This document shows positions 1-27,089 of a stretch of DNA of 64,000 nucleotides, in pieces. This DNA is from Amoebidium appalachense. Taxonomy: Eukaryota; Protista; Ichthyosporea. The number at the start of each line of letters is the position of its first letter. Within the stretch, counting starts at the first letter, position 1. The notes below the pieces were generated by a model, which had not been told where the DNA came from, made no database searches, and saw only the letters and a program-made list of their open reading frames with translations. Position numbers and translations under genes: made by a program. The DNA lies in the NCBI GenBank assembly GCA_963693365.1, contig CAVNZM010000011.1, positions 1,178,001-1,242,000 of the forward strand. The letters are read 5' to 3'.

Positions 1-5718
<5,718 letters not shown>

Positions 5719-13440: not shown

Positions 13441-14179
13441 TCAATCGACCTCCTCCACTGTAGGACCCCCACCCATCTTCGGGCCCTCAGCCCCGTACCC
13501 AGGCCCGGCCCCAGCGTCAGCAAACCCCCCATACTCTCCGCCTGTCCCCCCAGACTGGTAAATTTTCGCCATGATGGGATTTACGGTTCTTTCCAGCTCC
13601 TTCTGCCGATCCTCGTATTCCTCCTTGGCGGCCAACTGATTGCGCTCCACCCAATCAAGTACCTCCTTTACCTTGCCGCTCAGCATGGTGCGATCCGATT
13701 CGCCAATCCGATCACGTATTTTCTCGTCGTCGAGTGTTGACCGCACGTGGAATGCATATGCCTCGAGTGCGTTCTTGGCCCCCACCCTGTCCCTCTGCTC
13801 TTCGTCCTGCTGGCGGTATCTCTCTGCCTCTTGCACCATCCTCTCTATGTCTGCCTGTGTGAGCCTCTCTTTGTCGTTCTTCACCGTGATTGTGTTGGTG
13901 CGCCCGGTGGACTTGTCGCTTGCTGTCACCTTGAGGATTCCGTTTGCGTCAATGTCGAAGGTTACCTCGATTTGGGGCACACCGCGGGGGGCTGGGGGGA
14001 TGTTGGTGAGGTCGAACTTGCCAAGAAGGTTGTTGTCTTTGGTCATGGCACGCTCACCCTCGTACACCTGTGTGTGTACATGTGACGGTGTGTATGTGTG
14101 TGTGGGGGGGTGGGTGGGTGGGTGTAAGTGTGTGTGTGTATGTGTGTGCTGTGTGTGTGTGTACGTGTGTCTATGTGTT

Positions 14180-14210
<31 letters not shown>

Positions 14211-16253
14211 GGTCGCGCGCACACGTGTGTTGCCTGGGTAAGGATCATGGAGAAAGGGTTGAATGAGTGAGGTGGTTATTGTACGGGCTAGGAGGGTGTC
14301 GAGCAATTGGTGGTGTGGCGTGTGTGTATGTGTGGGGTGGTTGTGGTGGTGGCGGTGGTTTCGAGGGGGGGGAGGGGGGGGAGAGGGGGGACGCGGGGGG
14401 GGGGGGGGGGGGGGGGGGGAGGGGTGGGACACTGCCTCGATGGGGGTGGGTTGATAAAGGGTAGGAATTGAAAAAAAAAAAAAAATGAGCGGGGAGGGCA
14501 TTGCCTTCTTTTTTTGTGAGCGCGCATGTGTTTTTTTGGCCAGTAGTTGTGCGTTGAAAAGGTGCACAAGAACTGTAAGCTCTCAGAGTCTGTGTCAACA
14601 GGAGTGCGTAGGGGCAGGATTAAAAAGGCGATGAGGTAATTAATTGAGACGTCGTGCCCAAAGTTAACAATAAAAGGAGGAGGAGAAGGGGTGGAAAGCC
14701 GGGTTGGAGGAGGGGGTGGAGGGGGGGGGGGGGGGGGGGGGGGGAGAATAAAAGGAATAAAAAATAAAAAGACGGACGGGGTAGGAAGGGCTGGGGAGGG
14801 GGGAGGGGGGAGGTTTTAAATGGAAAGGGGAAGGATAAGACTGCCGGCCAGGAAAATTTAAATAACGAAGTTCATGGTTAGCGGGCAAGAATGCAGGGGA
14901 GAGATGGCCCCAAATACCCACCTGGATGGTGACGGCTGGCTGGTTGTCGCTGTACGTGGTGAAGGTCTGTGTCTGCTTGGTGGGGATGGTGGTGTTGCGC
15001 TTGATCAGTGGTGTCATAACACCCCCGGCCGTCTCAATGCCCAGCGACAGAGGTGCCACGTCCAGAAGAAGAAGGTCCGAGACGTTTCCAGAAGTCTCCC
15101 CAGACAGGATGGCCCCCTGCACCGCCGCACCGTAGGCCACGGCCTCGTCCGGGTTGATGCTCTTGTTCAGCTCCTTGCCGCCAAAATAATCCGACAACAT
15201 TTTCTGAATTTTCGGGATGCGCGTTGAGCCCCCCACCAGTATGACCTCGTCGATGTGGGCCTTGTCGAGTTTTGTGTCCCGCATAGCCTTTTCCACAGGG
15301 CCGAGGGTGGACCGGAACAAGTCTGCACACAGTTCCTCAAACCGTGCACGGGTGATGGACGTGTAGAAGTCGATGCCGTCCATCAGTGAGTCCACCTCGA
15401 TGGTTGCCTGGGCAGAGGACGACAGGGTGCGCTTTGCACGCTCGCATGCAGTGCGCAGGCGCCGCAGGGCACGGGGGTTTGTGTTGAGGTCCTTCTTGTA
15501 CTTGCGCTTGAATTCGGCCACAAAATGGTCCACCATGCGGTTGTCAAAGTCCTCCCCGCCCAGATGTGTGTCCCCGGACGTGGCCTTGACCTCAAACACA
15601 CCGTCGTCGATGGACAGAATGGACACGTCAAAGGTGCCGCCGCCCAGGTCGAAGATCAATACGTGCTGCTCCTTCTTGCCCCTCTTGTCCAGCCCATATG
15701 CAATGGCTGCAGCCGTGGGCTCGTTGATGATGCGCAGCACGTTGAGGCCTGAGATGGCCCCTGCGTCCTTGGTGCTCTGCCTCTGCGCGTCGTTGAAGTA
15801 TGCGGGAACGGTAACCACGGCGTCTTTGATTGGACGACCCAGGAACCCCTCTGCCGTCTCCTTCATCTTCCCAAGCACCATAGCACTGATCTCCTCCGGC
15901 AGGAATGTCTTCTTTTCGTTCATAAACTCCACCTCTACGGCCGGCTTGCCCTCCTTGTTGATGACTTTGAAGGGCCAGTGCTTCATGTCGGCCTGCACCT
16001 CCTGGTCGTTAAACCGCCGCCCAATGAGTCGCTTTGCGTCAAACACGGTGTTGGCGGGGTTGAGGGCCACCTGGTTCTTGGCTGCGTCACCCACCAGACG
16101 CTCAGTGTCGGTGAAGGCCACATAGGAGGGTGTTGTGCGATTGCCCTGGTCGTTGGCGATGATCTCCACCTTGCCGTGCTGGTACACACCCACACAGGAG
16201 TAGGTCGTGCCCAGGTCAATGCCCACAGCTGGTCCTTTCACTTCGGGTGCCAT
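13441..16253 (-). CDS. HSP70: Cytosolic heat shock protein 70, 652 aa, one intron
   Basis: Exons 16253-14922 and 14067-13441 (phase-0 GT-AG intron). Signatures [45 protein letters not shown] and C-terminal GPTVEEVD. Confidence 0.98.
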
Positions 16254-16590: not shown

Positions 16591-18178
16591 AGCCTACAGC
16601 CGCTCACCGATTGACACTGCCGATGAGTGTCACCGACTCGTTTTGTTTTGTGTTAGCACCTAGTAGTGCAAAATGACAGAAGCCTTTACTGGTAAAGAAG
16701 TGTATACACAAAGTGAGATAATATCCTCACCCAAAAATCACCTTTTGTCCACGGAGTGTCTTTCCGGATCTTGTCTAGCTTTTCTAACATTAAACCTTGC
16801 CTTTCTTGTTGGAAAACCTTTTCCAAGGTGCACGAAAAATGGTACAAACAAACTCACTGGTCGGCCTTTCGCTTTCCGTGGGTTCCTGCGTCATCAGTAC
16901 CAGGAAGTTCGGGACTTTGTCCCCGAATTAATTCCTCGCCAAAAAGTGTCCGCCTGTTTAAGTTATTTTCGAGTGGTCCTCCCCCCCCCCCCCCCCCCCC
17001 CCCCCCCCGGGCCCCCCCTTTTCCTCTCCTGCGAACTTATAATAATCAAGGTTCTTTTCCGGATGGCTGCATCTCTATCCCACTTTCCCTCCCTGTTTTC
17101 CTCCTTCCTCGTCTGTACGCCCGCCCTGCCTACGTGTCATTCTTCCTCCTTCCCTCTCTTTCGGAAACTGCACTGGATCAAGTGTGTTACACAAATGTTG
17201 GTGGTGGAGTTCCGCGGTGGAAGGGGTGCCCTGCCGGGGGAGTGTCGGGGTGAAGACGGGCTTGTGGGGATCACCCTTACCGGTGGGGTATGGGGCATGT
17301 GTGTGGTGGTGGTGATGTGTGTCTGTGTGTGTCTGTGTGTGTGTTGTGTGTGTGGAGAGAGGGGGGGAGAGGGGGGAGGGGGGGGGGGGGAGGGATCCTG
17401 GAACGGAAGAGGGGTTGGGGGAGAGGGGAGGGGGGAACGGCGAGGAAGCGGGGCGGCAGAGTTAGAGGCCTAGGGAAGGTGCGTCACAGTGTATGTGGGG
17501 TCACAGTATTATCAACACGTTTGAAAGGGGAGGTAACGACATTTGGTTACCGTCAAACACAGTTCTAGGGCTCAGGGGCGACTTCTTATATGCAGTTTAT
17601 GAAGTGTCTATGCAAACCAGGGGACCGGACTACTAGTGGTGTGCCCGTGATTTGCACAACAAGTTTGGTGTGGTTGTAAAAAAGTGAATATGGGTGGGTG
17701 GGTGTGGGCCTAGGGGGAGGGTCTGGCTCTGGAAGGGGAATTAAAGGGGGGTTTTTTTTGTTTTGTTTTTGCGCCGGGGGGGGGGGGGGGGGGGGGAGAA
17801 GGGGGAGAGGGAGGGAGAAGGGGAGCAGGGAAGGATAAACCATGGAACAGGTAGTGATGAGTAGTCGGGGTCCTACACTTGAATGTGGCCCTGTATGGTC
17901 ATATGAAACATACTGACCTAACCTTTGCCTCAGGTTCCGAACGGTTGTTGATAAAGCAGTAGAGCCCGGTGTATGTAAGTCACTGCAAACAGGCTAACTG
18001 TGCATTATATGTGGGCCTTGTCAACTGCCTTCTTGCTCTCTTCTACAAGGTGACTAGTAGAAGAATTGGGAATTGTCGTGAATGTGTATATTTGTGCCCC
18101 AGGGGGGAGGGGGGGTGCAGGGGGGTTTTTTGGTTTGATTTGCAACCCAGGTCAATGGCCTTTGCTTTGGGAGTGCAG

Positions 18179-18788
18179 TGTAAACATCTGTACACGCCGT
18201 ACATGTTTACTATTACGAATATACTGTACATATCATAGTGATCACGTAGATATTGTGTACATATGATCAGATCAATATCACACGCGACAGCCGCGGGCTG
18301 CGGCTCACGACTGAGCCGCGGCGCCGGCAATATGCAGTGGCCGTGCAGTCAGTATGAACCAATAGAATGCGAGAACCGCTAGGATAGGAATGCAAGTCTC
18401 ATCCACTACGGAGGCGACATCTATAGCTAAACGAACGGAACCAATAAGGAAATCAGACCCAGTTGCATAAACCTAAACGGGCTTAAGTATTGACCAATCA
18501 TTTGCCACAAAGTTATCCTTTTAGTTAGCTTCATGTTATTGGTGCACTGTGTGCACATAAAGACGACCGCACTCTTCTGACTGGTCAGAAGTCACGAAGG
18601 CATCAATGCCACCCATCCAGATGATCCGGAACCTGGGGGCTATATAAACAAGCCGTCCCAGTACGGGGGATCACTCTGAACGAGCACATTAAATAGTAAC
18701 CTGGCCGCGTGTGCCTTACTACCCGTTCTCTGTCTTTATTCTGATTCAGTTGTTCTCTGCCTTATCCCAACTAGTTCAACTGTTTACA
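18179..18788 (+). repeat. 5' LTR (610 bp)
   Basis: Identical to 25815-26424 except 18369 G versus 26005 T; 8-bp terminal inverted repeats; TATATAAA at ~18641. Confidence 0.98.
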
Positions 18789-18789
18789 T

Positions 18790-18803
18790 TGGCGACCGCG
18801 CAG
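18790..18803 (+). other. Primer-binding site, probably tRNA-Arg
   Basis: TGGCGACCGCGCAG lies 1 nt after the LTR. TGG complements CCA, and TGGCGACC matches the tRNA-Arg PBS type of Drosophila 412/mdg1. The tRNA identity is from recall, not verified. Confidence 0.7.
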
Positions 18804-18840
18804 TTCCAGAATCTCACATCTTTCAAGAATCTCTTCAACC

Positions 18841-20844
18841 ATGGCGGGCGAATTTGACGACTACCCTGTACTCTCGGACAATGAAAGCAAACTGACACGT
18901 GACACCAAGAAGCCTACCGCAGTCAAACCGCCGCCCCCAACGCAGAAGAAAGCCAAGACTCCGGGGCAGGGCACGAAAACACTCCCCACCCCTCCCCCTA
19001 CACAGCCTCGTGCTCCCCAGAAACCGAACACGATCACAAAACCCAACACACACACGAACACAAAGGCAACTACGAAGCCCACTGGCAACGAACAAACGAA
19101 GCCCAACGAAAGCACGAAACCCAAAGACAAAACGAAGCGCAACGAACACACGAAAACCAACGAACATACGAACACCAACGAACACACGAACACCAACAAA
19201 CACACGAACGAACTTCAAGTAGCAACGAAGGAAAAAACGAAACAAGACCGGGACACTGCCACAGCTCTGGCAGAGGTGCGGGGCCGTGTTCTCTCCAAGT
19301 TCTATCGTATTGAAACTCTGAGACGTGCCATTCAAACTGCAATCGATGCTGGGCGGCCTGTGATGGACCTCGAAGCTGATGTCGCGCAGATTTACAGTGA
19401 GATTTCGCAGATGGAAGACACCACACTGTCTAGAATGTTGTGCACGTCCGCGAAATGGTCTGAGTTGGAGCGGGAAGCACAGTTGGTGGCTGAGGCACGT
19501 GTGAAAAATACGACGGTGCCCACCACCCCCCGTCCTCCCCCACCCACCACAGGCAAGAAGCCTTTGTCCCCGGTCCCATCTGGGTGCACTGATCCCAAGG
19601 TAATTGCACCTCCCGCACCCCCCACTAAATTTACATATAAGGATGTGCTTGCGCGCACACTCAGCTACACTGATTCTGATGCTGAAAATGAAGAAAAACA
19701 CGAACAAAGTTACGAAGACACACCCACAAACGAAAACGAACACATGACTGCGAAAGTGCATGAAGAAGATCACTTCGACCAGCCTAAAGCACCCGTATTT
19801 AACGAAATCCCCCTTGCAGGATCCCCTCTGGCGTCTGCAGGTGGACTGGCAGGCACGCCAAGTCGCCCGAGAGGCTCTGATGTCAGCACAGGCTCAGGAG
19901 GTAAGGCTGGGTCTATATTGAACAAGCACTTTGCAGAGCACGAAAAACTGTGGTTGCACCCTCTCCGCCAGTTGCATGCATCCGAATACGGCCCCATCTT
20001 GGCTGCATTGAAACTACCAGAATACAAGGGTGACTTGCAGGATAAATGCACGGTGATTGAATGGCTGCACGAATTTTCCCAGCAGATGTTTTGCATTGCA
20101 GGGGTCCCCCCCACACTTGCTGTTCGCTGGGCGGTGCAGTGCTTTCCTCTTGCTTCCCCCGCCCGTGTGTGGTACACGAATTTTACCAGGACACAGGGAG
20201 AACTCACGTTTGATGCATTTGCACATGCACTAGTTACGAAATTTCACGACCAGCGTGTGCACAAAGAGGCACTCAGTGCCGAATTAAATGCACTCAAACA
20301 AGGCAAGCAAAAGGTGGCCGAATTTGCAAGCAGGCATGCGCGTTTGTGGGCACGTGTGTACCCCCTTAAGTCTGAGGCACACCAAATTTTGGATTTGTCT
20401 CACCGATTGGGTGGGGAAGACGAACAAGAATTTCGCAAATATCAACTCAGACAAACACGAAAAGAAGAAGAATTGACCCTGTCTGGAGTTGTTGCCTATC
20501 TCGCAGAAAAAGAAAGAGACAGGCACACACGAACCCCATCCACCATTCTAACACAGAAACCCCCCACAAAACAGCAACCCGGTGGTGGATCTGGTGCCAG
20601 CGAGAAGCCGTCTATTTTTTCGCGCATGGGCACCACCCCCTGCAACCGTGGGTGCAAGTACGGCAGCCACGCCGAAGGCAAGACGTGCCCGGCCCTCAAA
20701 TTCGAATGCCACTCCTGCAAGCAGAAGGGGCACTTTGGGGGGTCACCAATTTGCCCCAAGTACGACCCCAACTTTAAGAAGGGAACCCGCAAGGCAGAGA
20801 TTGAGGCTAATCGGGCCAAGTTCAAGAGAGCACGTGTAGAATAG
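18841..20844 (+). CDS. gag: Gag polyprotein, 667 aa
   Basis: Low-complexity N-terminus (NEHTNT repeats), retrotransposon capsid-like region (ARVWY...TFDAFAHALVTKF...LNALKQGKQKVAEFASR) and a double zinc knuckle CNRGCKYGSH...CPA..ECHSCKQKGHF....IC. Confidence 0.92.
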   Translation: MAGEFDDYPVLSDNESKLTRDTKKPTAVKPPPPTQKKAKTPGQGTKTLPTPPPTQPRAPQKPNTITKPNTHTNTKATTKPTGNEQTKPNESTKPKDKTKRNEHTKTNEHTNTNEHTNTNKHTNELQVATKEKTKQDRDTATALAEVRGRVLSKFYRIETLRRAIQTAIDAGRPVMDLEADVAQIYSEISQMEDTTLSRMLCTSAKWSELEREAQLVAEARVKNTTVPTTPRPPPPTTGKKPLSPVPSGCTDPKVIAPPAPPTKFTYKDVLARTLSYTDSDAENEEKHEQSYEDTPTNENEHMTAKVHEEDHFDQPKAPVFNEIPLAGSPLASAGGLAGTPSRPRGSDVSTGSGGKAGSILNKHFAEHEKLWLHPLRQLHASEYGPILAALKLPEYKGDLQDKCTVIEWLHEFSQQMFCIAGVPPTLAVRWAVQCFPLASPARVWYTNFTRTQGELTFDAFAHALVTKFHDQRVHKEALSAELNALKQGKQKVAEFASRHARLWARVYPLKSEAHQILDLSHRLGGEDEQEFRKYQLRQTRKEEELTLSGVVAYLAEKERDRHTRTPSTILTQKPPTKQQPGGGSGASEKPSIFSRMGTTPCNRGCKYGSHAEGKTCPALKFECHSCKQKGHFGGSPICPKYDPNFKKGTRKAEIEANRAKFKRARVE

Positions 20845-23800
20845 GAAGGCGGGCAAGGGACTGGTCTCTCCCCAGTAGAACATAATGTATTTGATTTAAT
20901 AGCAGAGCTGGAACTGTGTTCCCCTCTGGCAGATAAATTGCAAAATAAATCTACTGGTGCGGAAATTTCTGTTGTCTCGGAGCCCTCCCACGAATCTGCA
21001 TGTGCCCCACCCCCCCACGAACAGTTACCCCCGTGTACTGACCCCCCCATGCACACGCACACCCCGCCCCCGCGCAAAAAGAAAAATGTGCATTTTGCTG
21101 ACCGTGTGCACTCCTCCATTGCAGAACCACGGCATGAAAATGCCACTGTGTGCACATTAACCCACGAAAATAAATGCACAGCCACACTTGCGCGAATGTA
21201 TGTGCATGGGAAGCTAGTCACAGTAGTTGTCGACTCTGGTGCTAGCCATAGCTGTATAAGCACAGCATTTTACGAATCTCTCCCTGTAGTGGCAAGAAAA
21301 CGAATTCAGCATGTTCCTAATTTTAGTGTACTGGATGCACAAAGTAACGAAATGACATGCCAAGGAAGTATATCTCTCACTCTCGCCATTCCCAACGAAT
21401 CTGCTCTAGTGGTGCACAGATGGCATGTGATTGATAATCTACCATATGATGCCTTATTAGGTGTTGATTTCATGGGGCCACAACAGGGACGAATTGATTA
21501 CGGTGCTGCAGAACTTTCGTTCATGTATGCTAAGGGAAATCGCAGGTGCAGTATTCCGGTGTGGTGGTTGCGTGGGAGTGCGGAGGAGACAGCTGTTTCT
21601 CGCGTATTAATTACCACCACAGGTATTCACCTCCCGGTAGATGCGTCAAATATCGCAACGTGTAAAATAAAACTCGCTGCCGGCGCACCACCACCACGAA
21701 CTTTAGACTGTTGTATGGGCACAGTGGTTCCATGTGGTCCACTTAATTCACGGGCTTACACAACAGCATGCAGTGTCACCAGTTTAGCTCGAATTTCGAA
21801 TAACGAACCCCCCCTCTCCACTAGCGAAGAAAGTGTGATCGAGGACGAATACGAATGCAAGGTGTTGTTGACTAACACATCGGACCATCATGTGTACCTA
21901 GGCCCTGGTACGGAGGTGGCCATGTTTATTCCCTTGCAATCAGATGACACTGTTACTCTTTTAGCACGTCCACACTCCGGTAATGGAACCAGGAGGGCGA
22001 CAACCCCACACCCTGGCCATCCATTAGGTACCTCTGCTAAAACGAACTTTTCTTCGCAGGAATCAACCGAAGAACCCACCGAACACGAACCACACACTTT
22101 CCAGGCGGCTACTAATATTAACGGTAGTATTAAGGTGTGTGAACGGAGTAAAATTATGAATATGAGTACGAAAAAGAACACCACACAGCGCAGTTCCACG
22201 AAAATGAATGGTTTTGGTAATCCAGCACGAACAAAACCAGAGGTAGGGCCACCTACTATCGAAGCAGCAGATGGGGCACCATCTACCACTGCACTGGAGG
22301 ATACGAATAATTTACGAAAGCGTACGCACGAATGTACCTCCGACGGGGAAGCCGCCACAGACGACGACTTGCCTTTTGGGGTCAAACCTCCAGAAGAATA
22401 CGACATGCCTGGAACTCCCCCAGACCAACGGAAACCGTTGGCGAAACGGATACGAAAACTGCTTAAGAAATGGAAGCATGTGTTCTCTGTCTGCACACGA
22501 CAACGACTTTGGTTTGAGTACCTTAGACGAACTGTCGATCGAAGTAACTACCACCATACCACAGTACCGCAGGCCCTATAACATCCCACATCACCTTCGC
22601 GATAGCCTACACAAACAAATTCAAAATTGGGTAGAGTTTGGAGTGATTGAGCCTGCGTCCAGCCCTTACTCCGCTCCGATGGTGTTGGTGGCGAAAAAGG
22701 ACGGGTCTTTAAGAGTCTGCATTGATTTTAGAATGCTGAACTTGATTACGAAGAAAGACGGTTACCCTTTACCACGAATTGACATGGCTCTGGGTATGCT
22801 CAGAGGTGCCCGCGTGTTTTCCGCACTTGATTTAAACGGTGGTTACCACCAAGTCAAAGTAGCCGATAACGACAAAGAAAAACTTGCATTTACCACCCCC
22901 TGGGGGCAGTATCAATTCGCACGCGCACCTTTTGGAGTAAGTAACATGCCTGCTGTCTTTTCAAGGATGATGAACCGTGTATTCGCTGGTATGCTGTGGA
23001 CACATGTACTCATATATCTCGATGATATATTAGTTATGTCACCCACTATCGAAGAACATTTTGGGCATTTAGATTCATGTTTTTCCCGGCTCTGTGATGC
23101 AGGATTAAAACTGAAAGGCAGAAAATGCTCTTTGTTCATGGAAGAAGTTGGCTATTTAGGCCATCGCGTATGCCCGGATGGTATTAAGGTAGACCCAGAA
23201 AAAGTGGCAGCAATAAAGAATAAAAGCTACCCACAAAATTTATCTGAGCTACGAAGTGACCTCGGGTTATTTTCATATTATCGAATATTTGTGGACGATT
23301 TCAGCCATACGGCTGAACCACTCACGCGAATGCTGGGCACCTCGAAGGAGGATTCAGAATTACTAAAACGAATTCACGCAAAAATGCCCCCCTCTACGAA
23401 ACCCGCCAAACGCAACGGCAGCGCAAAACAACGAAAAGACGAAGCAAAAAATTTGCACGCCGATTCTGCAGCTATTTTGGCCACGAAAAAGAAAGCACAG
23501 AAAAATGCTGCATGGGTGTGGGGTACGGAACAGGAGAAAGCATACGATACCCTTAAGAATGCGTTAATTAATGCACCTGTGCTTGCTCACCCCGATTTCA
23601 CCAAACCTTTTATTGTTGACTCAGATGCTTCACAGTATGCTCTGGGCGCAGTGATTTCGCATGTAGGTGATGACGGCAAAGAACGACCCATAGCTTATGC
23701 TAGCAGAACACTCTCTAAGAGTGAACGAAATTATGCGGCGAATAAAAGGGAAGCCTTAGGTGTGTATTGGGCTGTGTGCAAAGCATTTCGCGCTTACACC

Positions 23801-25750
23801 TATGGGGCTCCTTTCTTGTTACGAACCGACCACTCCAGCTTGACGCGCATTCTGTCTACCGGCGATGCACCGGAACCTGTTGTTGCAGGCTGGCAAATGG
23901 CGCTTTCCGCATACACATACGAAATTCAGCACAGGGCGGGCAAACACCACAGCAATGCTGATGGACTCTCTCGGCCATCTAAAGAAAATGCGCAACCAGG
24001 ACCCGAAGATACTGAGCTGACATACCCCTCACTGATCGGCACAGTCTCGGGCTCGTCCACGGTGTTTGCGGTAACACGCTCCGCCGCAGCGACAGCGCAG
24101 GCACAAGCTGCCACCCACCCACCCCCAGCTGAACCCACGAAACCTAATACCACGCCGCCAGAATTTATTCCCCCAAAAGCGGATGGACGAATGCCCACCT
24201 ATGAACAGTATGTGTCAGCACAGAAGGCTGATAAACACATTGCGAAAGTCAGGGCCTACCTGGAAAAAGCACCGGGCTACGAATTATTTGGCAACGAAAT
24301 CGCGATGGAAGCTAGTCGCTGCACCATAGACAATGACCTTGTGTATGTGTGGGTCCTAGAACAGCGTGGCCCCCGCAAACCCAGCAAGGAACCACGAATT
24401 TGGGTGCCGTCTACGCTTGTGCGCCTCGTTTTGGCCGCATGTCACGACGCCCCAACCGCAGGTCACCTCGACGCAGCACGCACCTTCCACCGTGTTACCC
24501 AGATAGCATGGTGGCCACGTGTATGGCAAGACTCGGTGCAGTGGGTAACCACATGCAAAGCCTGTCAATACCGGAAGACACCCCGAATGCAAAAGAAACT
24601 ACGAATTCACGATGGTTTTATCCCCACCTATCCCTTTCAATACGTGTCTATGGACATTACTGAGATGCCTACGAAATCTGATCTCAGAGTTTCCCTGTTG
24701 GTGTTTCTCGACCTCTTCACTCGCTAGCCGGAAGTGATTTTATTTCACAAAACACCCACAGCCGAAGATGTGGCAAAGGCATTCGAAGACTCCATCTACT
24801 GCCGTCACGGTCGTCCGGAATTTTTAGTATCAGACAACGGCGCGAATTTGGCAGCTATGTTGGTCACAGATGTCTGTCGAGTGTTGGCTACAAAACGAAT
24901 TTTTGCAAGTCCCTACAGCCCCCAGACCAATGGTGCCGTAGAGCGATTCAATCGCACACTTAAGAATATTCTTGCCACTCTCGTGCAGGATAAACACCAC
25001 GAATGGATTGACTACTTACCGCAAGTACTGTTTTCCTACCGCACCGCCTACCACTCTTCCTTGGGGGACACGCCATTCTTCATGCTTTATGGCAGAGATC
25101 CGGTCGAGCCCCCCCGCCCCCCAATTGCGGCTTCATGTGGGATGGAGACGGAGGAATACCGTCGAGAACTACTGCAACGAGTGCAGTATGCCCGGCAAAC
25201 AGTCACACGAATTATGTCTGAAGCTGCCCGTCGTAGTAAAATCACGGCTAACAAAAATGCTCGTGAACCCACAGAACTCGAGGGTCTGGTGTTGAAAGCA
25301 GTCACAGACTCCACCACCGACCACAGTCTACCCACGGCACTCAGACCTAAATGGGAAGGTCCGTATCGCGTCCTGCGGCGCGTTACCGACGCCCCCATGT
25401 CTTACGAAATTCAGCGGGTTGGGTCAACGGACACCGTTCGAGCACACGCACGTCGCTTGAAGCCGTATTTTCCCCGTGACGACGTTGATATGACGCCAGC
25501 CGACTCTGGTCCGCAAGATTCACCCACCCCCACCTTCGAAGTGGCAAAAATTATTGCCCACAAGTACGACTCGGCAACTGCCCAAGCCCTTTACAAAGTT
25601 CGTTGGAAAGGGTACACGGCTAAGAACGACACCTGGGAACCTCACTCCGGCCTGCAAGACACAGCCGCAGGAGCACTCACAGACTACCTAGGTACTTTGG
25701 TGGCCGGCCCTGCCAGCCAGCCCGCACGAAAGAAGCGCCGACGTCGCTAA
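20845..25750 (+). pseudogene. pol: pol (protease, RT, RNase H, integrase, chromodomain), interrupted by one frameshift and one nonsense codon
   Basis: VVVDSGASHS protease; RT with YPLPRID, APFGVSNMPA and YLDD; RNase H DASQYALGA...TDH...NADGLSR; integrase H..GH...C..C, VSMD, SDNG, AVERFN and GPY; chromodomain FEVAKII...YKVRWKGY...DTWEP. A TCTG duplication at 22486-22493 shifts the frame, and there is a TAG at 24725-24727 in DLFTR*PE. Confidence 0.93.
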
Positions 25751-25801
25751 CTTCCCTCAGCCTGGTGGTTTACCGTCTCCAGACCATACCACCAGGCTCC
25801 C

Positions 25802-25814
25802 GAGAAGGGGGGAG
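25802..25814 (+). other. Polypurine tract
   Basis: GAGAAGGGGGGAG directly abuts the 3' LTR. Confidence 0.9.
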
Positions 25815-26424
25815 TGTAAACATCTGTACACGCCGTACATGTTTACTATTACGAATATACTGTACATATCATAGTGATCACGTAGATATTGTGTACATAT
25901 GATCAGATCAATATCACACGCGACAGCCGCGGGCTGCGGCTCACGACTGAGCCGCGGCGCCGGCAATATGCAGTGGCCGTGCAGTCAGTATGAACCAATA
26001 GAATTCGAGAACCGCTAGGATAGGAATGCAAGTCTCATCCACTACGGAGGCGACATCTATAGCTAAACGAACGGAACCAATAAGGAAATCAGACCCAGTT
26101 GCATAAACCTAAACGGGCTTAAGTATTGACCAATCATTTGCCACAAAGTTATCCTTTTAGTTAGCTTCATGTTATTGGTGCACTGTGTGCACATAAAGAC
26201 GACCGCACTCTTCTGACTGGTCAGAAGTCACGAAGGCATCAATGCCACCCATCCAGATGATCCGGAACCTGGGGGCTATATAAACAAGCCGTCCCAGTAC
26301 GGGGGATCACTCTGAACGAGCACATTAAATAGTAACCTGGCCGCGTGTGCCTTACTACCCGTTCTCTGTCTTTATTCTGATTCAGTTGTTCTCTGCCTTA
26401 TCCCAACTAGTTCAACTGTTTACA
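25815..26424 (+). repeat. 3' LTR (610 bp)
   Basis: Copy of 18179-18788 with one substitution, followed by TSD TGCAG. Confidence 0.98.
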
Positions 26425-27089
26425 TGCAGTGAATAGCGGCCACTTATCGACTGAAAAAACAATAGATGGAAGACAGCAAGCAGCTGTACCGGTAGGGACC
26501 GTGAATGATCCGTGTAGTTTATTGACTCACGGCTTGAGGGCTTTAATTACAGATCTTGGCTAAGACACAGGCTAGCAGGCCACTACACTTGCACGTGCAA
26601 CGCGCGGGTACATAGTGCAACCTTGGCCATGGCCATCTCGAGTCTCTAGATGGCCGTGAACCTTGGCTTATGTAAAGCCACAAGGACCGAGTGGAAGGTG
26701 ATAGTCACATCCAGATGCAATAATGGTTAGGCCACGACACAACTACATAAAAAGCTAATTCAGCAGAGTAAAAACCATAATCTTGATGATGGCAGGAGAG
26801 GTCCCTAGGGGAAAAAGTCGTGTTGAGCTTCATACGGGAAGCAGCAGTGAAAGGGTGGAGGGAGGAGCACCAATCGAAGGGGGGGAGGGAGAGGGGGGGA
26901 GGGAGGGAGGGAGGGGGGGGGGGGAGAAGAGAGCGAGAGAGCACTGGCAAGAGATCGAGAGCGAGAGAGAGAGAGGGAGAGAGAGAGAAAGGGAGAGGGG
27001 GGGGGGCCGGGGGACGGGGGGAAAGGGGGGGGGGGGGGGGGAGGGGGGGGGGAGGGGAGGAAGGGAGGAGGGGGAGAGAGAGAAGGTGT

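Follow-up and report, generated by a model that had tools for sequence, protein, structure and literature searches.

The genome of Amoebidium appalachense contains, on contig CAVNZM010000011.1 of GenBank assembly GCA_963693365.1, a long terminal repeat (LTR) retrotransposon of the Ty3/gypsy type whose coding sequence is exceptionally rich in the pentamer ACGAA on one strand. The stretch analysed here (the window) comprises 64,000 nt, positions 1,178,001 to 1,242,000 of the forward strand, and the element occupies 18179-26424 of it. Beyond a few models, it is largely unsettled how LTR retrotransposons bring a long unspliced RNA through an intron-dense host and into their own particles. An original prediction, made from the sequence, proposed that ACGAA saturates the open reading frames (ORFs) of the element in all codon phases as a cis-code overlaid on coding sequence, serving either as multivalent RNA sites or as DNA sites for an anti-silencing factor. 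In this study, the motif was evaluated against null models, distant relatives, host exons and related contigs, and the Gag protein of the element was modelled.

Structure of the retrotransposon

Coordinates refer to the window, and all features of the element lie on the plus strand. The element is flanked by a 5-bp target-site duplication (left 18174..18178, right 26425-26429). The 5' LTR (18179..18788) is 610 nt long with TG...CA ends, and contains no TTCGT, the reverse complement of the motif, and three ACGAA, all upstream of a TATA-like box at 18643. The 3' LTR (25815..26424) carries one mismatch to it and also has three ACGAA, in agreement with the number predicted for each LTR. With LTRs one base apart, the element is young. 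A primer-binding-site-like sequence (18790..18799) follows the 5' LTR, and a polypurine-tract-like stretch (25800..25814) precedes the 3' LTR.

The gag ORF (18841..20844, 667 aa) ends in a TAG that is in frame with the protease ORF, which may be reached by read-through. The aspartyl protease and a long linker (20845..22485) hold 21 ACGAA and are followed by the reverse transcriptase (RT), RNase H and integrase zinc domain (22486..24724), and then by the integrase core with a C-terminal chromodomain (24728..25750). Pfam matches lie in the order gag, protease, RT, RNase H and integrase (PF03732, PF08284, PF00078, PF17917 and PF17921), with a PF13683 match just above its cut-off and the chromodomain (PF00385, E 1.3e-10) at the integrase C-terminus. 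No ORF beyond gag and pol was found in the element. A retrotransposon-encoded adenine methyltransferase, of the kind described in the accessible text of 10.64898/2026.05.21.726589, was rejected because the domain is absent from the Pfam matches.

In this copy, the frame is broken near 22486 and an in-frame stop lies at 24725-24727. Since public contigs differ from the window at both positions, the break and the stop seem peculiar to this copy or to its assembly. Over long stretches, contigs of DNA-type runs from two samples agree with the element to within 0-1 differences. The element is probably multi-copy, given that its words are found in runs of several samples and that contigs show variant forms.

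Enrichment of ACGAA on the sense strand

By exact count, ACGAA occurs 75 times and TTCGT twice in 18841-25750. These values bear out the manual estimates of about 75 sites in 6.9 kb and about 55 outside the gag N-terminus, the exact number of the latter being 57. The whole window holds 107 ACGAA and 28 TTCGT, with 26 of each in the ~55.7 kb outside the element. Of the 81 element sites, 75 fall in the coding span, and the arrangement is repeat-like only in a dense 5' cluster (18973..19241). This cluster contains 18 sites and encodes a Thr/Asn/Glu/His/Lys repeat; 17 of its sites lie in 19054-19241 at a spacing of mostly 8-18 nt, and no stable RNA fold was predicted for it. The other 57 sites are dispersed over 19700..25730 and are densest in low-constraint linkers.

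The number of ACGAA expected in 18841-25750 is 10.1 from base composition, 10.9 from a first-order Markov model and 31.2 from a second-order model, which already takes up part of the signal. The 74 sites in frame-defined segments are distributed over the three codon phases as 23, 31 and 20, and the original prediction was thus right that all phases are used. Its term "saturates" suits one phase, xAC-GAA, in which 25 of 29 encodable positions are used; usage is lower in the ACG-AAx phase (11/20) and the xxA-CGA-Axx phase (20/53), giving 56 of 102 together.

Synonymous-codon shuffling outside the N-terminal repeat yielded 21.4 +/- 3.5 ACGAA (maximum 32 in 1000 shuffles) against 56 observed, and ACGAA ranked first of the 1024 pentamers. 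Under a stricter null that keeps the protein, codon usage and dinucleotide counts, the expectation was 18.0 +/- 3.2 (z 11.7, maximum 29 in 193 samples); the excess therefore persists under the dinucleotide-preserving shuffle that had been named as a refutation. TTCGT occurs 2 times against 1.9 expected under the strict null (z 0.1), though it is encodable at 50 positions. Its rarity had been pointed out correctly, yet it is not unusual, and A-rich controls are lopsided too; the informative point is the lack of enrichment on the opposite strand, not depletion.

The enrichment is specific to the exact word. Variants at the last base are scarce or only mildly raised (ACGAT 4 vs 7.5, ACGAG 1 vs 7.5-8.4, ACGAC 15 vs 9.9), ATGAA is down (7 vs 12.8 under codon shuffling), and TCGAA, CCGAA and GCGAA are close to expectation. 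A longer consensus was ruled out, as the flanks merely avoid G at -1 and +5, and so was a fixed spacing outside the 5' cluster. Heat-shock elements consist of alternating GAA and TTC; such an element was also ruled out because TTCGT stands at background. In structure prediction, anagram pentamers are less unpaired (mean 0.33, n=280) than the ACGAA sites themselves (0.40, n=78; P 0.002). Two motif-bearing segments fold no better than shuffles (z -1.0 and +0.5), and no Rfam family matched. A second, weaker enriched word, CACAG, is present in 19246-25747 (27 vs 14.1, z 4.4 under the strict null).

Seventy-eight Ty3/gypsy-like metagenome loci served as controls, of which 61 with at least 900 nt of long ORF were tested and 17 were skipped. 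Each of them is distant, with an identity of <=45%, some are redundant with one another, and none is known to come from this host. In the same test, the maximum z among the 61 loci was 3.3 for ACGAA and 6.9 for any pentamer, against 10.1 for the window. The latter maximum belongs to GCCTA in control L026 (16 vs 4.3 in 6120 nt of ORFs), which could be due to local repetition or to a weaker code. The closest pol relatives are P0001 (58%) and P0009 (50%); the pol protein alone as query found no relative in the metagenomes, and an alignment-based search found none in viral or prokaryote collections. So far, the ACGAA excess is confined to one retrotransposon lineage.

These comparisons bear on the view that the excess simply follows from A-rich composition, amino-acid content and the gag repeat, or else is an artefact of assembly. 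A-rich control elements do reach 4-5 ACGAA/kb with few TTCGT (35 vs 2 in L009), 18 of the 75 sites lie in one repeat region, and this copy carries private differences from public contigs. However, z remains at 10-12 without the repeat under composition-preserving nulls, the A-rich controls stay at z 3.3 or less, and the near-identical DNA-type contigs from two samples speak against an artefact of assembly. Unless the dinucleotide-holding null is flawed, it refutes this view, which we consider very improbable. The count is about three times what codons and dinucleotides account for, composition does not explain the excess, and selection on a one-strand motif is well supported.

Codon choice and protein sequence

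Four codon choices are shifted, and only at places where the shift yields the motif. Codons for His, Asn, Asp and Tyr end in C before Glu in 25 of 29 cases, against 146 of 281 elsewhere (Fisher P 3e-4), and Glu after these residues is always GAA (29/29 vs 71/102, P 1.5e-4). Thr is encoded by ACG before Lys or Asn in 11 of 20 cases (25/145 elsewhere, P 5e-4), and Arg by CGA in the A_A context in 20 of 27 (13/107 elsewhere, P 7e-10). Because the four shifts require different base changes, a single mutational bias such as G-to-A editing does not fit.

The protein sequence of Gag and of the protease with its linker is altered along with codon choice. Peptides compatible with the motif are in excess in gag (49 vs 27.6, z 4.6) and in the protease plus linker (35 vs 18.2, z 4.4), and no such excess was detected in any of 30 related proteins (maximum z 2.1). 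The density of ACGAA tracks low protein constraint, from 42/kb in the gag repeat and 26/kb in an insert between RT and RNase H to 4.7/kb in RT. The insert (23331-23520) holds 5 ACGAA in 190 nt, and P0001 also has an insertion there with a different sequence. The proposal of a cis-code overlaid on coding sequence is thus supported: the excess survives the shuffle and arises in three phases via different base changes, and, as described below, the host exons sampled do not share it and the sites are spared between sister families.

A probable spliced gag RNA

One contig (run X19) joins 19597 to 19818 and 19898 to 20573, and both joints are readable as GT-AG. They are listed in the one run examined that is presumably of RNA type and not in three DNA-type runs; no RNA-type source is on record for the element. 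Intron 1 (19600..19819, 220 nt) has a branch-point-like TTAAC and 5 ACGAA, and the branch-point-like adenine at 19802 is the first base of one of them. The middle exon (19820..19900, 81 nt) contains no ACGAA and is read in a shifted stop-free frame when spliced. Intron 2 (19901..20574, 674 nt) is GT-AG with a branch-point-like CTAAC and holds 7 ACGAA. In a simple pattern scan, both donors are among six donor-like sites in the 7-kb body.

Removal of either intron alone shifts the frame, and removal of both takes out 894 nt and leaves an ORF of 369 aa. Intron 2 (Gag 354-578) encloses the predicted capsid fold (Gag 359-564), and intron 1 lies in a disordered linker. The spliced product is predicted to keep an N-terminal hairpin and a double knuckle and to lose the shell. 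The 794 exonic nt flanking the splice sites contain no ACGAA against 7.0 expected, and the two introns hold 12. The spliced contig ends at 20933. The first AATAAA of the element, a candidate early poly(A) signal (20944..20949), begins 11 nt further on, and the next ACGAA, at 20990, is 41 nt beyond it.

Sister family and a possible mutational origin

Contigs of a sister family, one each in runs X18 and X19, align at ~80% to 22023-22283. The stretch 22023-22234 has five ACGAA, and their 25 positions are untouched by the 36 listed substitutions, of which 4.25 would be expected there (P 0.007); two ACGAA are gained, at 22058 and 22204. For randomisation, one substitution present in every run was dropped; when the remaining 35 were placed at random, 0.8% of trials showed no loss and 0.025% combined no loss with two gains. 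The reading frame of the sister in this stretch is uncertain, as the lengths of the listed gaps are not divisible by three. The retention of ACGAA in the sister family is supporting evidence and not decisive.

Two further observations concern these contigs. The sister matches 21845-22283, in the protease-RT linker, at ~80% and most of its RT does not match at this level, a pattern that may reflect nucleotide-level constraint or inter-family recombination. In addition, X19 contigs share short stretches at 18662-18800 and 26258-26425 and then diverge, which suggests related or non-autonomous families that use the same LTR 3' end and primer-site ends.

A sequence-directed, strand-specific process of mutation or repair in the retrotransposition cycle could in principle drive and hold ACGAA without any function. 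The density of the motif follows low protein constraint, some one-mismatch neighbours (ATGAA, ACGAG) are depleted, and an attractor would explain the sister-family gains as well as selection does. Such a process would, however, have to turn T into C ahead of GAA, place G at the third position of Thr codons and turn A into C in Arg codons. Simple G-to-A editing combined with protection of CpG does not account for the pattern, as TCGAA, CCGAA and GCGAA are near expectation, and low-constraint linkers beside the splice sites remain motif-free. A mutational origin therefore appears improbable.

Host genes, CpG context and alternative readers

The genes around the element are intron-rich and include XPA and a family 3 glycosyl hydrolase; a DExD/H helicase and a globin are also matched, though weakly. 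By itself, this neighbourhood would suggest a host among the unicellular relatives of animals. The helicase exons (2168-5600, minus strand) have weak Pfam support and are presumably Dicer- or RIG-I-like by their motifs. An HSP70 gene (13444-16253, minus strand) shows 83-84% best identity to database proteins, the named ones being animal; the element lies 1.9 kb upstream of it in divergent orientation. Host introns and intergenic DNA contain very long poly-G/poly-C runs and CA repeats.

Host exons of the window, roughly delimited and including a 1.4-kb HSP70 exon, hold 4 ACGAA in 5442 nt, so these exons do not share the excess; an equal excess in host genes was the other outcome named in advance as a refutation. 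Since host exons and distant relatives are without the word, the reader is more likely to be the element's own. A host RNA-binding protein (SR-type, SAFB-type or an export adaptor) might instead read the sense RNA and keep the 7-kb transcript unspliced, stable and exported. The strand and splice evidence would serve this reading equally. According to the available text, SAFB binds A-biased, GAAGAA-rich ORFs of animal transposons and suppresses splicing into them (PMC10901741), and SR proteins recognise GAA or GAY triplets and help certain intronless RNAs to be exported (PMC9022966). Against it stand the low count in host exons, although this covers only the 5.4 kb just described, and the exactness of the pentamer, since ACGAT and ACGAG are not enriched, unlike what GAY or GAAGAA preferences would produce. 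A host reader is accordingly possible but on the unlikely side.

Host DNA is CpG-poor (observed/expected 0.63), and the CpGs of the element outside ACGAA are at 0.72. The most depleted context in the host is GCGA/TCGC (0.37, with simple repeats partly masked), which hints at context-dependent CpG methylation. These values bear on a reading that extends the second branch of the original prediction: a sequence-specific anti-silencing or chromatin factor of the VANC or TnpA type would bind ACGAA on DNA and read its CpG in a methylation-dependent manner. Every ACGAA contains a CpG, and the depletion of host and other element CpGs is as expected if they are methylated. The three LTR sites lie in the promoter-side part, and family-specific, dense motifs in one orientation are the pattern of VANC in the accessible parts of PMC5735166 and 10.64898/2026.08.24.746577. 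For a unicellular, intron-rich relative of animals, 5-methylcytosine on transposons has been described (PMC11244446, as far as its available text goes), a finding that may not apply to this host. On the other side, VANC motifs are found in tandem repeats, whereas the 57 single sites here lie in unrelated coding contexts with the opposite orientation at background; moreover, the element shows no ORF beyond gag and pol that could encode such a factor, and a pentamer is short for DNA-binding specificity. A DNA site is thus unlikely.

Gag domains and candidate reader

Gag 121-667 was modelled with an alignment of 19 sequences (mean pLDDT 77), a single-sequence model being poor (pLDDT 45). A full scan yielded 23 Gag relatives, and a word-index search yielded none. 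The model contains three folded parts, namely a helical hairpin (~122-223), the capsid fold (359-564) and a double Cys/His knuckle.

The N-terminal hairpin domain (19204..19509) has similar segments in several relatives. In a fold search it matched only generic helical hairpins (Z 9 or less), and a search of the protein structure Atlas gave no usable match for it. It overlays ESCRT-III-type hairpins within this generic range (Z 7.4-8.3, rmsd 1.4-2.4, 70-79 residues aligned). The capsid fold (~19915-20532), with pLDDT mostly above 90, matches the Ty3 Gag profile (E 1.4e-4). Its structure matches include Copia (Z 12.3, rmsd 9.3, 162 aligned) and the Arc C-lobe (Z 11.6, rmsd 1.8, 81 aligned), and the Copia, Arc, PEG10 and MLV capsids all fall at Z 10-12. 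The double knuckle (20641..20754) consists of Cx3Cx4Hx5C followed by Cx2Cx4Hx6C, and 7 of its 8 Cys/His residues are invariant in the 19 aligned sequences. For this region, Pfam gave nothing at E 0.05, and a comparison with PDB sequences gave no meaningful match. Knuckles of Gag are the natural RNA-binding part of retroelement nucleocapsids, and this one is the candidate reader of the motif.

Proposed mechanism

The 57 dispersed sites each occupy a place of their own in coding sequence, and the opposite orientation is no commoner than expected. The reader would therefore see single-stranded nucleic acid, most simply RNA, in keeping with the predicted openness of the sites and the lack of structure in the 5' cluster. 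The RNA branch of the original prediction is favoured, with the one-strand gain of dispersed sites and the splice anatomy as its grounds. Our tentative reading, to which we assign a probability of about 0.45, is that ACGAA is a repeated RNA binding site for the zinc knuckles of the element's own Gag and that it marks the full-length RNA for retention and packaging.

The steps of this Gag-based mechanism would be as follows. The spliced contig would represent a real mRNA ending near 20960-20985. Its 369-aa product, or full-length Gag, would bind ACGAA, with the 5' cluster nucleating binding. Occupied sites in the introns and downstream would then shift the output from short spliced RNA to genomic RNA, so that the full-length RNA would escape splicing and early termination and be packaged. 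Selectivity would come from avidity, as genomic RNA carries ~78 sites and the short RNA ~18. A more specific version, which we regard as doubtful, is a Rev-like feedback: splicing of the gag RNA by the host would produce a capsid-less, double-knuckle Gag that binds ACGAA, stops both further splicing and early termination and licenses the full-length RNA.

Several points weigh against recognition by Gag and against the evidence on which it draws. The splice evidence is a single contig from a single run (X19), whose RNA status is a guess. Contigs cannot show RNA ends, and a lone AATAAA is the ground for proposing an early poly(A) site. The overlap of the intron 1 branch point with an ACGAA is not significant alone. 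The motif-free exonic parts offer only 4 encodable positions (0/4 vs 56/98, P 0.038), and the 5' cluster was left out of the exon test by a choice made after seeing the data; its 18 sites lie in exon 1, so the motif is not a simple mark of intronic RNA. Splice-site-like words are not depleted in the ORFs, and the idea that 5' splice-site words are avoided was rejected (GTRAG z -1.5). In conserved pol, the excess of motif-compatible peptides is slight (44 vs 34.6, z 1.8). The sister comparison covers the listed differences and not 67 others. If its complete range is only 22056-22189, P becomes 0.065. Its null ignores protein constraint, and two gains arise in 16% of trials when positions are fixed and bases randomised. 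Finally, relatives with the same invariant knuckle cysteines are without the motif peptide signature, so the specificity of the knuckle would have to have changed.

One exact pentamer is thus under selection so strong that codon use is biased in all phases and amino acids are altered. If the element's own capsid-less Gag is the reader, the motif would amount to a self-recognition code, for which the literature searched offered no example. Comparable codes in other transposon families would be accessible to a simple k-mer test.

Comparison with known systems

No description of an ACGAA motif or of a capsid-less Gag switch was found in the literature searched, which excluded supplements and most subscription journals. 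Also new here is the probable RNA contig from which two gag introns are missing, in frame, so that the capsid fold is lost and the double knuckle kept.

Given its chromodomain, the element may belong with the chromodomain Ty3/gypsy families Sroscv and Cocv of unicellular holozoans, with which it shares a 5-bp target duplication and near-identical LTRs (PMC6875170, PMC4007536). The available text of these surveys describes GC-ending codon bias in the S. rosetta families, and, in contrast to the present element, mentions neither a pentamer code nor gag introns.

The VANC/VANDAL and TnpA/Spm systems of Arabidopsis share a family-specific, short, dense motif in one orientation (PMC5735166; 10.64898/2026.08.24.746577). 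They differ, in the accessible text, as DNA transposons with 8-10-bp motifs, mainly in non-coding tandem repeats or termini, and with a dedicated DNA-binding protein; the VANC motifs are 9-mers in the non-coding tandem repeats of a DNA transposon (PMC5735166). The analogy to VANC made in the original prediction therefore applies to one-orientation density (75 vs 2) and family specificity (61 controls), and fails on location, as 57 sites here are dispersed in coding sequence. The L1, Tigger and ERV ORFs bound by SAFB likewise show a sense-strand bias in transposon coding sequence that is tied to splicing suppression (PMC10901741, available text). That bias is a diffuse purine bias across unrelated families with a host repressor as its reader, whereas here a single CpG pentamer is enriched in one lineage; GAAGA does not rank among the top 25 pentamers by enrichment, and against codon shuffles AAAAA is depleted.

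The packaging signals of MS2, parechovirus and the hepatitis B virus (HBV) pregenome resemble ACGAA in being many short related sites along a genomic RNA with a structural protein as proposed reader (PMC6281560, in its accessible part). They are degenerate and lie in stem-loops, whereas ACGAA is one invariant pentamer, for which the two folded segments give no sign of stem-loops; the carrier here is an LTR retrotransposon, and its protein sequence is visibly distorted. A short spliced, early-terminated gag RNA is also known, as shGAG, from EVD and further Ty1/copia elements of Arabidopsis, where it competes with the unspliced genomic RNA (PMC5580714, available text). It is the template for Gag itself, whereas in the present Ty3/gypsy element two introns remove the capsid fold and early termination would be involved.

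The proposed feedback is also comparable to a retroviral scheme, in that a spliced product would license the unspliced RNA. The retroviral Rev, Rex and Rec proteins are spliced products that license unspliced RNA by binding one structured element, and they are not isoforms of Gag. In the element of A. appalachense, the reader would be a capsid-less Gag and its target ~75 dispersed pentamers.

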